From a virus (taxonomy: Duplodnaviria; Heunggongvirae; Uroviricota; Caudoviricetes): a stretch of 40,480 nt of DNA. Both the position numbers and the translations under genes were made by a program. How positions within the stretch are numbered: the stretch's first letter is position 1; every line of letters starts with the position of its first letter. The stretch spans positions 1 through 40,480 of IMG/VR virus record IMGVR_UViG_2718218098_000005. One strand, 5' to 3'. A model generated the notes under the pieces. The model was not told the origin of the DNA and did not search any database. It worked only from the letters and a program-made list of their open reading frames with translations. Shown piece by piece: positions 1 to 24,300 of the stretch.

Positions 1-387
1 TCACTTCTCCAGTGGCTTATACCGTACCTCTCCATAATTACCCCGACCAAACAGCCTGACGGCAGCATACATCAGCACCCTGCGCCAGCGGGGAACACCC
101 AGGACTTTCATGGCGTCCAGAAATATCCGGTCTGCCTCCGCTTTTGTCCTCAGCGCATTGTCGTACAGCCAGTCGTGGATAATCGCTGCCTTGGCATAAC
201 GCCCGTGTGGCGGAAATACGGACCACAGAATACGTGGTACGCTCGCAAGGTCTGTCACGTACCCCTCCGGTACATATATCACATCATCCGGACGCTCTGT
301 CTGCCAGAACTCAAAAGGTTCAACCAGCCGCCAGCGGTAATCACCGAGCATCTCCAGTACTGCGGGCGTGGTAAATTTACTCATCAT
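1..387 (-). CDS. DUF1353-like phage protein (128 aa), downstream of tfa
   Basis: ORF with stop at 1-3; start taken at second ATG pair (MMSKF) preceded by GGGAGGGAG, overlapping tfa stop; family name from memory of motif IIHDWLYD. Confidence 0.55.
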   Translation of the reverse strand: MMSKFTTPAVLEMLGDYRWRLVEPFEFWQTERPDDVIYVPEGYVTDLASVPRILWSVFPPHGRYAKAAIIHDWLYDNALRTKAEADRIFLDAMKVLGVPRWRRVLMYAAVRLFGRGNYGEVRYKPLEK

Positions 388-916
388 CTCCCTCCCATCC
401 GACAACAAACCGGTTAATTTCCTCTGTCACCGTCAGACGCTCAACAGCCTCTTTCATCTGCCGCTGACGCTCATGAATTTTAAAACCCCGCATCACCATT
501 GCCTGCAGCATTGCGCCATCCAGTTGTACCAGTTCTTCCGCCGTCAGTCTCACATCCCGGTTATCCACATCCGTCCAGAAAAAACCTTCAGGAAGTGCTC
601 CCGACTGTGCCACGGCTGTAACCGGAGACAGACGGCTGCGGGCAGCCTTACCACCATCCCAGCGGTGCCCATGCCACTCAAATATCACCCCCGCATTCTC
701 CTGTTCATCACGCCAGCGGCTGATTTCTGCCAGCTTGCGTTCACGGGCAATCTCCGCTGTTTCATTTTCTCCTGTCACCACATCCGTCTGTTCACGGTAC
801 ACCTCATCAGCCACCACCCTGCCATCCTCCGGCCAGCGACCGGCGTGTTCATAAACCGCCTTCAGTGCAACCGGATAAAACAGGTTACGTGATGGTGAGT
901 AAATATATTTACCCAT
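377..916 (-). CDS. tfa: Tail fiber assembly protein (Tfa-like), 179 aa
   Basis: N-terminus MGKYIYSPS typical of Tfa; RBS AAAGGAGAGAAC 5' of ATG at 916; directly follows tail fiber gene. Confidence 0.8.
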   Translation of the reverse strand: MGKYIYSPSRNLFYPVALKAVYEHAGRWPEDGRVVADEVYREQTDVVTGENETAEIARERKLAEISRWRDEQENAGVIFEWHGHRWDGGKAARSRLSPVTAVAQSGALPEGFFWTDVDNRDVRLTAEELVQLDGAMLQAMVMRGFKIHERQRQMKEAVERLTVTEEINRFVVGWEGDDE

Positions 917-926
917 GTTCTCTCCT

Positions 927-2096
927 TTAACATCCTGTTGCATACCAGTAAACCTCACCAAACCATTCATTTATGGTGCCAACGGTAAACCCGCTGTCTG
1001 TCATACTCATCACGCACGGCACGGTTGCTGATAAATCGTCCTTTACTGTCAGCTGGATATTCCACGGTCCCTGAGGAAACGGAACAGGAAAACGACACTG
1101 GTTACCGTAACGACCTGCAACGGCAAACACACCCCACTGTCTCATAATCCCTGTAGCCGTATCCCGCTCCCAGCCATTAATCCCTCCCTCGCCGGTATTA
1201 CGGTAGCGGGCATCCGACTCTGCCCTGCTGTAAGCATTATCACTGCCAGCTGGCCCACGTGGACCCGCGGGTCCCGTATCACCTCTGGGACCACGTGGCC
1301 CTGCCGGACCGGTGTCGCCTTTCAGCCCCTGTTCACCCTTCGGACCTGTGTCGCCTTTTGGTCCCCGTTCACCCTTCGGACCTGTGTCGCCTTTCGGACC
1401 AGGCTCACCCTTTGGCCCTGCGTCGCCTTTCGGCCCCTGAGGTCCTGGTACTCCCCGCTCTCCGGTATCACCTCTGGGTCCCTGTGGCCCCGCCGGACCG
1501 GTGTCCCCCCGGGGACCCTGCGGGCCGCCGGGGTCACCTTTTTCCCCTTTTTCGCCCCGCTCACCCCTGGGTCCCGGTACACCCTGTGCACCTGTCATGC
1601 CCCGCTCCCCTCTGGGGCCGGTCTCACCCCGGTCACCTTTCGGTCCTGGCTGCCCCTGCGGTCCCGTATTCCCTTTGTCCCCCTTCGGCCCCCGTGCATT
1701 TTCTGCCCGTCGGGCTGCTTCTTCCGCACGGGATTCACTCCCGCGTGCCCGTTCAAGGATTTCTGCAGCAACGGCCTCCAGCTCTGCCAGTGCTCTGGGA
1801 TATTCCGCCGCCGTTTCTTCATTCAGCAAAAACTCATTCAGCGTCCCTGCACGGGATTTTTCACTGACGGTTATCTCTCCGGCATACACCGGCGGATACC
1901 CTTCTGTCTGCAGAATGACGCTGTAATTCCCCGGCTCCACTGACATACTGTAGCGACCGGCATCACCGGGTTCACAGGAGGCCACGGTATGCACTATCAC
2001 TGTGGCACTGGTCCGTTTTGCCTTCAGCCGGATGACACATCCCGGCACCGCTTTTCCTGTACCGTCTTTCAGCACGCCTGAAATCTGTACTGCCAT
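927..2096 (-). CDS. Side tail fiber protein with prophage tail-fiber N-terminal domain and long collagen-like Gly-X-Y region
   Basis: ORF 927..2102 begins with GTG; ATG at 2096 has GGAG 5 nt upstream; ~49 consecutive G-X-Y triplets in translation. Confidence 0.8.
1247..1691. repeat. Collagen-like (Gly-X-Y)n coding repeat inside tail fiber gene
   Basis: Translation [26 protein letters not shown]... through [11 protein letters not shown]; repetitive GGN-CCN-rich DNA. Confidence 0.85.
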
Positions 2097-2107
2097 ACTC
2101 ACTCCAC

Positions 2108-2133
2108 AAAAAAGCCCGCCTGAACCGGCGGGC
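2108..2133 (-). terminator. Intrinsic terminator-like hairpin downstream of lom
   Basis: Minus strand reads AGCCCGCCGGTTCAGGCGGGCTTTTTTGTGG: 7-bp GC stem followed by T6. Confidence 0.6.
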
Positions 2134-2160
2134 TGTCATAACACTGTGTTACCTGGCTAA

Positions 2161-2760: not shown

Positions 2761-2784
2761 AATTACCTCTCGCTTTTCTGCAAT

Positions 2785-2808
2785 AAAAAAGGCGCCATTT
2801 CTGGCGCC
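2785..2808 (-). terminator. Hairpin plus U-run between J and lom
   Basis: Minus strand GGCGCCAGAAATGGCGCC followed by TTTTTTATTG, 20 nt upstream of lom ATG. Confidence 0.5.
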
Positions 2809-2827
2809 CGTATATGGGGTATAAAAT

Positions 2828-23990: not shown

Positions 23991-24065
<75 letters not shown>

Positions 24066-24068
24066 ATA

Positions 24069-24144
<76 letters not shown>

Positions 24145-24146
24145 AC

Positions 24147-24223
24147 TGGACCGCCACCGGGGACTCGAACCTCGCACACTCAACTTAAAGTGTTGACGCT
24201 CTTTCCTGATGAACTAGTAGCGG
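24147..24223 (-). tRNA. tRNA-like, probable anticodon TTT (Lys) with C33
   Basis: Acceptor CCGCTAC/GTGGCGG, 5-bp anticodon stem TCAAC/GTTGA, loop ACTTTAA, T-loop TTCGAGT, CCA encoded. Confidence 0.5.
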
Positions 24224-24224
24224 T

Positions 24225-24300
24225 TGGTGGCCCTGGCTGGATTTGAACCAGCGACCTGGCGATTATGAGTCGCTCGCTCTCACCACTGAGCTAAAGGGCC
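24225..24300 (-). tRNA. tRNA-Ile2-like (anticodon CAT; ileX/ileZ type)
   Basis: Strong similarity by recollection to E. coli ileX; anticodon loop CTCATAA; CCA encoded. Confidence 0.8.

Follow-up and report, generated by a model that had tools for sequence, protein, structure and literature searches.

The window (i.e., the whole 40,480-nucleotide stretch of DNA analyzed here) maps by coordinates to positions 854591-895070 of Escherichia coli M6, a mouse isolate, and covers exactly one prophage of 40.5 kb. A 3-kb stretch of the window, taken as the reverse complement, is identical to the M6 genome. One end of the prophage carries the genes for the integrase, an exonuclease, CI/Cro-like regulators, and replication, together with Q; a tRNA cluster, holins, and an endolysin come after these and are followed by terminase, portal, and an HK97-type protease and capsid. 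The tail genes come next (tape measure, M, L, K, I, and J) and are followed by lom, the fiber gene that is the subject of this study, and genes for a DUF4376 and a DUF1353 protein. The window is apparently an intact lambdoid prophage.

The fiber gene is a minus-strand open reading frame that begins with an ATG at position 2096, ends with a stop codon at 927-929, and encodes a protein of 389 amino acids (Table 1). RefSeq uses the same ATG as the start of the identical gene in E. coli M6 and names the product 'prophage tail fiber N-terminal domain-containing protein', in agreement with the reading frame given at 927-2096 by an initial annotation made from the DNA alone. An in-frame GTG lies at 2102, two codons 5' of the ATG. 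Two plus-strand open reading frames within the same region (1259-1867 and 1501-1926) were rejected as antisense shadows of the GC-rich (69%) collagen-coding DNA.

Table 1. Features of the fiber locus (positions are those of the window; aa, residues of the encoded protein).
Feature	Position	Strand	Details and basis
Side tail fiber gene	927..2096	-	ORF list, translation, Pfam, RefSeq CDS WP_073527995.1 in E. coli M6
N-terminal collar (virion-attachment) domain, aa 1-90	1827..2096	-	phmmer vs PDB chain 9e7m_Ta
Linker and short Ala/Glu/Arg-rich helical segment, aa 91-135	1692..1826	-	C-terminal part of PF08400
Collagen segment 1, 18 Gly-X-Y triplets, aa 136-189	1530..1691	-	Residue count
Extra Gly, aa 190, center of GDPGGPQG	1527..1529	-	Residue count
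Collagen segment 2, 32 Gly-X-Y triplets, aa 191-286; length-variable part	1239..1526	-	Residue count
36-bp (12-aa, [R/Q]-type) tandem array	1305..1439		3.8 copies, 83% matches; TRF
C-terminal non-collagen region, aa 287-389: short helix and gp53-like beta-sandwich	930..1238	-	PF21882, phmmer, AF2, Foldseek
Intrinsic-terminator-like hairpin, AGCCCGCC-GGTTCA-GGCGGGCT and T tract	2105..2134	-	Consensus scan only
DUF4376 gene, 179 aa, downstream of the fiber gene	377..916	-	PF14301, E = 7e-21
DUF1353 gene, 127 aa, last prophage gene	1..384	-	PF07087, E = 8e-34; RefSeq CDS

Pfam resolves the fiber protein into a prophage tail-fiber N-terminal domain (PfN), collagen, and a gp53-like C-terminal domain, in that order. 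PF08400 covers residues 1-134 over the full profile (positions 1-134 of 134, E = 4.1e-40), the collagen profile PF01391 matches the middle of the protein (E = 5e-24), and PF21882 (Gp53-like_C) matches residues 314-388 with 32.1 bits against a gathering cutoff of 24.9. The shaft is thus flanked by a prophage tail-fiber N-terminal domain and a C-terminal domain, as had been proposed.

We counted 50 Gly-X-Y triplets over 151 residues (aa 136-286). The last triplet of segment 2 is GSD, and leaving it out gives 49 triplets, the number claimed initially (about 49 triplets over some 147 residues). Since Gly makes up only 10% of the fiber protein outside the collagen stretch, the periodicity of 50 in-register Gly residues is not a product of chance (P roughly 1e-50). 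At the X position Pro accounts for 46% and Asp/Glu for 38%, and the Y position is occupied by Lys/Arg (48%), Thr (18%), Gln (12%), Ala (10%), and Pro (10%), which fits the earlier description of the repeat as rich in Pro, Lys, Asp, and Arg; aromatic residues and Cys are absent from the triplets. The triplet register is broken once, by the extra Gly at residue 190 (GDP-G-GPQ, within the motif GDPGGPQG at aa 187-194). This single break had gone unnoticed in the initial annotation.

Collagen-like proteins of enterohemorrhagic E. coli (EHEC) prophages, EPclA through EPclD, were previously described as putative side tail fibers composed of PfN and collagen (Ghosh et al. 2012, PLoS One 7:e37872, PMC3368898). 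EPclA is a thermostable, triple-helical trimer that gives a collagen CD signature and looks like a dumbbell whose stalk is hinged, and a genuine collagen triple helix was established experimentally, by CD, collagenase, and EM, for EPclA and EPclB only (PMC3368898). We found that the window fiber resembles this family in that it has a PF08400 N-terminal domain and (Gly-X-Y)n collagen matching PF01391, and in that its gene follows J/lom in a lambdoid prophage. The X position of EPcl collagen is about 48% Pro and about 36% Asp/Glu, its Y position holds Lys/Arg, Ala, Thr, and Gln, and it lacks Cys, Phe, His, Trp, and Tyr (PMC3368898); the composition of the window fiber (46% Pro and 38% Asp/Glu in X, no aromatics or Cys) matches. 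Furthermore, GDPGGPQG reproduces exactly the G-X-P-G-G-P-X-G interruption that is conserved in EPcl collagen, and collagen length varies in multiples of three residues among relatives of the window fiber as it does among the EPcl Col regions (PMC3368898). The sequence predicts that the window fiber forms a collagen triple helix.

The window fiber also differs from each EPcl type. A PCoil domain lies between PfN and Col in EPcl types A, B, and D and is often missing in type C (PMC3368898). The long Ala/Ser/Glu-rich PCoil is absent from the window fiber, in which collagen begins at residue 136, right after PF08400. The C-terminal trimerization domain PfC (PF06820), found in types A and B (PMC3368898), was not detected in the window fiber and PF21882 stands in its place. 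Assignment to type C was rejected since in the representative, P-EibA ORF-401, a Pf2 repeat separates two collagen segments and the C-terminus is unrelated, without similarity to that of the window fiber. Type D was rejected in the same way, as the representative, Stx2-86 gp21, ends in a Peptidase_S74 domain and its C-terminus is likewise without similarity. The combination of PfN, collagen, and PF21882 Gp53-like_C is not listed in Ghosh et al. 2012 (PMC3368898), and the window fiber adds another shuffled member to a modular family that was already known.

The N-terminal 90 residues of the fiber match residues 1-90 of Ur-lambda gpStf (PDB 9E7M chain Ta; phmmer, E = 4.2e-32), for which the reference structures are PDB 9E7M/9MGH (Yu et al. 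2025, Sci Adv). In Ur-lambda, a six-stranded beta sheet and a helix make up residues 1-94 of gpStf, twelve gpStf copies make a collar around the gpV/gpM junction, and flexible linkers join three collar domains to each side fiber, which gives four trimeric fibers (PMC12617516). The window prophage contains homologues of gpM (PF05939, E = 1e-31) and gpL for the predicted docking platform, and its fiber gene follows J and lom as stf does. Beyond the homologous collar domain the two fibers part. The shaft of lambda Stf is coiled coil or beta-helical with a hinge whereas that of the window fiber is collagen, and the distal part of lambda Stf is T4 gp37-like and binds OmpC whereas the window fiber ends in a lectin-like beta-sandwich. 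In addition, lambda has Tfa downstream of its fiber and the window has the DUF4376 and DUF1353 genes. For PfN, Ghosh et al. 2012 (PMC3368898) predicted a helix and coiled coil starting at about residue 90-101, and by analogy the segment at residues 91-135 of the window fiber is probably a trimeric coiled-coil nucleus.

Sequence and structure searches both placed the C-terminal region of the fiber with the tips of R-type pyocin fibers. The last 105 residues match R2 and R1 pyocin fibers in the PDB (phmmer, E = 3e-5 to 3e-3; 6CT8, 6CL6, and 6CXB at E = 3e-5 to 8e-4) and, weakly, gp53 of AP22. An AlphaFold2 model of residues 280-389, built from a shallow alignment of 10 sequences, has moderate confidence (mean pLDDT 68.5) and shows a helix followed by eight strands. 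Foldseek of this model against the PDB returned significant matches only to 6CT8, 6CL6, 4MTM, 6CL5, and 6CXB, with a probability of 1.00 and TMq of 0.51-0.61. The window tip matches the R1/R2 pyocin and AP22 gp53 domains in the sequence and fold of the terminal beta-sandwich, at only about 20-25% identity, and like them would sit at the extreme end of a trimeric fiber. The R1/R2 pyocin fibers differ in being part of contractile particles, in having knob and shaft domains instead of collagen, and in using a different chaperone. The terminal lectin-like beta-sandwich of pyocin fibers has been implicated in binding LPS saccharides (Buth et al. 2018, Viruses 10:427, PMC6116203). These data suggest that the C-terminal region of the window fiber is a putative lectin-like receptor-binding tip.

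No canonical Tfa chaperone gene was found downstream of the fiber gene. The DUF4376 and DUF1353 proteins encoded there fall in PHROGs tail fiber / tail assembly chaperone families: the DUF4376 protein matches tail fiber families and, weakly and over residues 1-45 only, the tail fiber assembly family phrog_188 (E = 9e-9), and the DUF1353 protein matches phrog_1158, 'tail assembly chaperone' (E = 3e-49). PDB sequence searches yielded no solved homologue of either protein. A 49%-identical DUF4376 homologue follows the P-EibA collagen fiber, and the DUF4376 gene is co-inherited with the fiber in the M8, M11, and KingRac loci described below. The DUF4376 protein probably serves the fiber as an accessory or assembly factor and moves along with its C-terminal module.

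We asked whether the protein might instead be a collagen-like adhesin or virulence factor displayed on the surface of the lysogen, in the manner of streptococcal Scl or Bacillus BclA, rather than part of the virion. Lom is a lysogen-expressed moron and the fiber gene adjoins it; collagen-like proteins act as adhesins in Gram-positive bacteria, and BclA was among the weak PDB matches. [quoted passage not shown] A surface adhesin is scarcely credible on these grounds. The identification as a tail fiber, made initially from the sequence, is instead upheld by the collar homology, the place after J/lom, and the lectin-like tip resembling those of R-pyocin and AP22 fibers.

We next consider the DNA that encodes the collagen. 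In addition to the 36-bp tandem array (Table 1), TRF reported a second array of two copies at 1462-1531, and an exact-repeat scan identified the longest exact direct repeat as 28 nt, present at 1331-1358 and 1367-1394 with a spacing of 36 nt. The collagen DNA had been described as repetitive; this holds for the 36-bp array with its 28-nt exact repeat, but the repetitiveness is only partial and the units are diverged (83% matches). The array at 1305-1439 is the substrate for gain and loss of 36-bp units.

Repeat number was compared among the members of the 90% protein cluster of the fiber and among E. coli genome hits. Most full-length cluster members have 389 residues and one has 401. The 401-residue protein (P0134) equals a 389-residue member (P0126) plus one perfect extra 36-bp unit, GGGGCCGAAAGGCGACGCAGGGCCACAGGGTGAACG, and nothing else differs in the aligned 250 nt. 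Within a sister lineage, P0003, P0002, and P0136 (348, 372, and 387 aa) contain 1, 3, and 4 copies of the 12-residue unit GPKGPKGDTGAT, with one extra GEK in P0136, the longest of the three. Among the best 120 relatives, segment 2 of about 99 two-collagen proteins comes in 21 different lengths from 28 to 60 triplets, many of which differ by a single triplet; segment 1 is constant in length in 99 of about 100. Indels among alleles map to collagen segment 2, and all of them are in frame and comprise whole units.

Recombination within the collagen DNA is supported by E. coli M8, whose fiber has 660 residues, a different PfN allele, a PCoil (a PCoil-like stretch of about 65 residues), and 120 uninterrupted triplets. 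The 3' end of the M8 fiber gene and the two genes downstream align with the window over 1,347 nt at 97.6% identity, and identity climbs from about 55% to about 99% at window positions ~1310-1345, inside the 1305-1439 array. In M8 the tip cassette stands directly behind a baseplate-J / tail-fiber / Tfa module, fused to the 120-triplet shaft. Together, the one-unit allele pair, the series of 1, 3, and 4 copies, and the break inside the array in M8 bear out the proposal that length varies by slippage or recombination. Our data support two processes in the collagen DNA: 36-bp units being gained or lost by slippage or unequal exchange, and homologous recombination. By comparing alleles we showed that the collagen-coding DNA acts as an evolutionary joint, at which units are gained and lost in frame and a tip-plus-chaperone cassette is re-coupled.

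The 36-bp array and its 28-nt exact repeat, together with an allele pair exactly one unit apart, might also mark a contingency locus, in which frequent slipped-strand changes inside one lysogen or phage population produce mixed fiber lengths or on/off frameshifts as a form of bet-hedging. The copies in M11 and M19 have annotated frameshifts of one or two bases, which lie at window position 1340/1341 within the array and would fit such a locus. However, both sit on the sole dinucleotide that separates paralogous copies (CCGAAG vs CCACAG, a site dimorphic for Lys and Gln), and because of this position we regard them as probable consensus errors from mixed paralogue reads. As probable assembly artifacts they were rejected as evidence of slippage. 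The array units are imperfect (83% matches), and since the 36-bp unit is always in frame, a change in unit number could not switch expression. Repeat number differs among related prophages, as the initial annotation anticipated (28-60 triplets in about 99 relatives), but all 11 complete genomes with the window allele (at least 99% identity) have one repeat number, including independently sequenced mouse isolates and the copy that a K-12 'invader' strain acquired horizontally. The length variation is thus evolutionary and not demonstrably rapid, and a contingency locus is quite improbable.

PfN-collagen proteins are common. More than 5,800 database clusters were matched, and tblastn matched 760 phage records, mostly of Stx-converting and other lambdoid phages. 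The window allele and its tip are rare, being found in 11 of 5,426 complete E. coli genomes, nearly all of them mouse isolates; these 11 genomes contain 25 copies of the tip in total, with 1-3 per genome. The exact fiber protein is present on 60 contigs. Within the phage collection, megablast with the fiber gene returned only 77%-identical N-terminal pieces and tblastn with the C-terminal domain only three weak matches, with no isolated phage bearing the tip; a word-indexed search with the C-terminal domain returned one fragment only.

WP_073527995.1 is also encoded by a prophage with a lambda-type head at the Rac site of IGC_EcoliInv_1.1, an evolved K-12 'invader'. This prophage adjoins uspF/ompN, and from its position we identified it as KingRac, which is inducible, forms particles, and lysogenizes K-12 in the mouse gut (PMC6731689). 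Given that KingRac is experimentally active, the fiber cassette belongs to at least one active phage. Besides M8, the tip cassette was found in the HK97-head lambdoid prophage of the window, the lambda-head prophage at the Rac site, and a lambdoid prophage at the pphA site.

Defective prophages are numerous in E. coli, and the fiber gene could be a decaying remnant of use to no phage, with differences in repeat number reflecting neutral drift. Laboratory lambda lacks a functional Stf, owing to a frameshift in stf, and is nonetheless viable and infects (PMC12617516), so the fiber may be dispensable; furthermore, some annotated copies are split by frameshifts. Against decay, the open reading frame is intact and the exact protein recurs on those 60 contigs, every observed indel is in frame and of whole units, and the frameshifts are probably assembly artifacts. 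The window and Rac-site prophages also look complete, and KingRac is experimentally active. We regard a decaying remnant as very improbable.

Our data make it highly probable that the gene encodes a collagen-shafted side tail fiber, an analogue of Stf, of an apparently intact lambdoid prophage, and that the collagen DNA serves as an evolutionary joint. Homology with Ur-lambda shows the first ~90 residues to be a collar domain; in Ur-lambda twelve such chains, as four trimers, sit at the tail-tube/gpM junction. The short helical segment that follows may nucleate the trimer. A collagen triple helix rises 0.286 nm per residue, and the 150 Gly-X-Y residues would fold into a triple helix about 43 nm long, in which the single Gly insertion is a possible kink. 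The same calculation gives about 3.4 nm of shaft for one 12-residue unit and about 103 nm for the M8 shaft. The last ~100 residues form, again by homology, a lectin-like beta-sandwich tip with the fold of R-type pyocin and AP22 fiber tips, which the shaft may keep away from the tail. We reasoned that the tip might catch a surface saccharide, probably LPS, before J meets its receptor, and that the DUF4376 and DUF1353 proteins might be assembly helpers. Within the collagen DNA, 36-bp units come and go in frame, and homologous exchange puts the same tip-plus-chaperone cassette on different N-termini and shaft lengths. Shaft length may in this way adjust reach or host range.

Side fibers govern the adsorption speed and host choice of temperate phages and in this way influence which strains receive prophage-borne genes. 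The collagen nature, modularity, and triplet-wise length variation of the family were already published in 2012 (Ghosh et al.); the present data add one further domain combination and a few clean allelic examples. In the mouse gut, KingRac is responsible for rapid horizontal transfer from one E. coli strain to another (PMC6731689), and since the Rac-site prophage encodes the identical fiber, the receptor of the fiber and the effect of its shaft length are relevant to that mouse-gut system.

A modest lead is that collagen DNA may be an in-frame recombination adaptor between different tail types. Pairing is possible between any two (GPKGDT...)n stretches, so the tip and its helpers could change tail machines. 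The presence of one tip cassette in the window, Rac-site, and pphA-site prophages and in M8 hints at such movement. We consider it possible, if on balance doubtful, that collagen repeats are a portable adaptor that moves the tip together with DUF4376/DUF1353 between unrelated tail machines and re-sets shaft length in the process. If this were so, selection might fit shaft length to how deep the O-antigen or capsule layer is.

We found that the fibre gene travels together with the DUF4376 and DUF1353 genes downstream of it as a cassette present on at least three different prophage backbones or sites at 97% or higher nucleotide identity (window 377-2096, L003 and L011), with one to three copies per genome. 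The carriers and the coordinates of other features are listed in the table.

Cassette carriers and feature coordinates (window positions unless stated)
Feature	Position or site	Strand	Remarks
Cassette carrier 1, HK97-type head prophage (window)	tRNA-Ser/hya site		
Cassette carrier 2, lambda-type head prophage	Rac site		identified in this analysis as KingRac
Cassette carrier 3, lambdoid prophage	pphA site		
PfN-PCoil-collagen fibre, 660 aa	L002:4337-6319 (E. coli M8 NZ_CP019953.1 2125009-2126991)		
Terminator-like hairpin between lom and fibre gene	2105-2134	-	
Terminator-like hairpin between J and lom	2782-2809	-	
tRNA-Met/Ile2(CAT), Lys(TTT), Thr(TGT), Gly(TCC)	within 23991-24300	-	ARAGORN

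The long fibre of E. coli M8 shares its C-terminal tip with the window fibre, and its collagen domain consists of 120 Gly-X-Y triplets without interruption, or approximately 29 units of a 12-residue sequence. At 360 aa, this domain exceeds the longest collagen domain reported among EPcl proteins, i.e., prophage proteins joining PfN and collagen domains, which is 322 aa (Ghosh 2012, PMC3368898). In M8 (L010, 2123000-2168000), the PfN-collagen fibre cassette lies 23 bp past a module of baseplate-J/gp47, a tail protein and Tfa, and the early region of the prophage carrying it is lambdoid (Rac-like). At the same pphA-side chromosomal site, M11 contains a siphovirus module of J, lom and fibre. A collar-domain fibre on a baseplate-bearing tail was unexpected, and the M8 arrangement may be a recombinant or a tandem remnant.

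Within the fibre gene, we compared the window with the 389-aa allele P0126, and nearly all substitutions fell within the zone of tandem 36-bp repeats (250 aligned nt; window 1300-1400 against L006:3617-3867). Since the substitutions cluster where the P0126 units are mutually identical and the window units have diverged, the alignment points to possible gene conversion or homogenisation of the repeats. In the M11 and M19 assemblies (L012 and L013), the fibre gene is annotated as split by a frameshift, in both cases at window 1340-1341, a dinucleotide that distinguishes paralogous copies (CCGAAG versus CCACAG). Because both breaks hit this dinucleotide, we disfavour reading the split genes as real pseudogenes; their position suggests consensus errors in which reads from paralogues were mixed.

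ARAGORN detected four neighbouring tRNA genes in the prophage, while RefSeq annotates only tRNA-Ile and tRNA-Gly in the corresponding, identical stretch of M6. The collagen domain of the window fibre is 34% Gly, 8% Lys and 6% Thr. tRNA-Gly(UCC) reads GGA and GGG codons, which make up 22 of 51 Gly codons in the collagen domain versus 25 of 90 in gene J. Any connection between the prophage tRNA set and how the collagen fibre is translated is speculative.

The lom gene lies between two terminator-like hairpins, an arrangement consistent with lom being a moron that would have its own expression and be inserted in the late operon.

Long plus-strand ORFs (202 aa and 141 aa), whose translations abound in Pro, Leu and Ser, overlie the collagen region (window 1259-1926); we rejected these as genes and regard them as antisense shadows of stop-poor repeat DNA with 69% GC. 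The 90%-identity protein cluster of the fibre also holds unrelated entries named 'terminase small subunit' (P0123, P0125 and P0128; 139-146 aa), evidently an artefact of database clustering.
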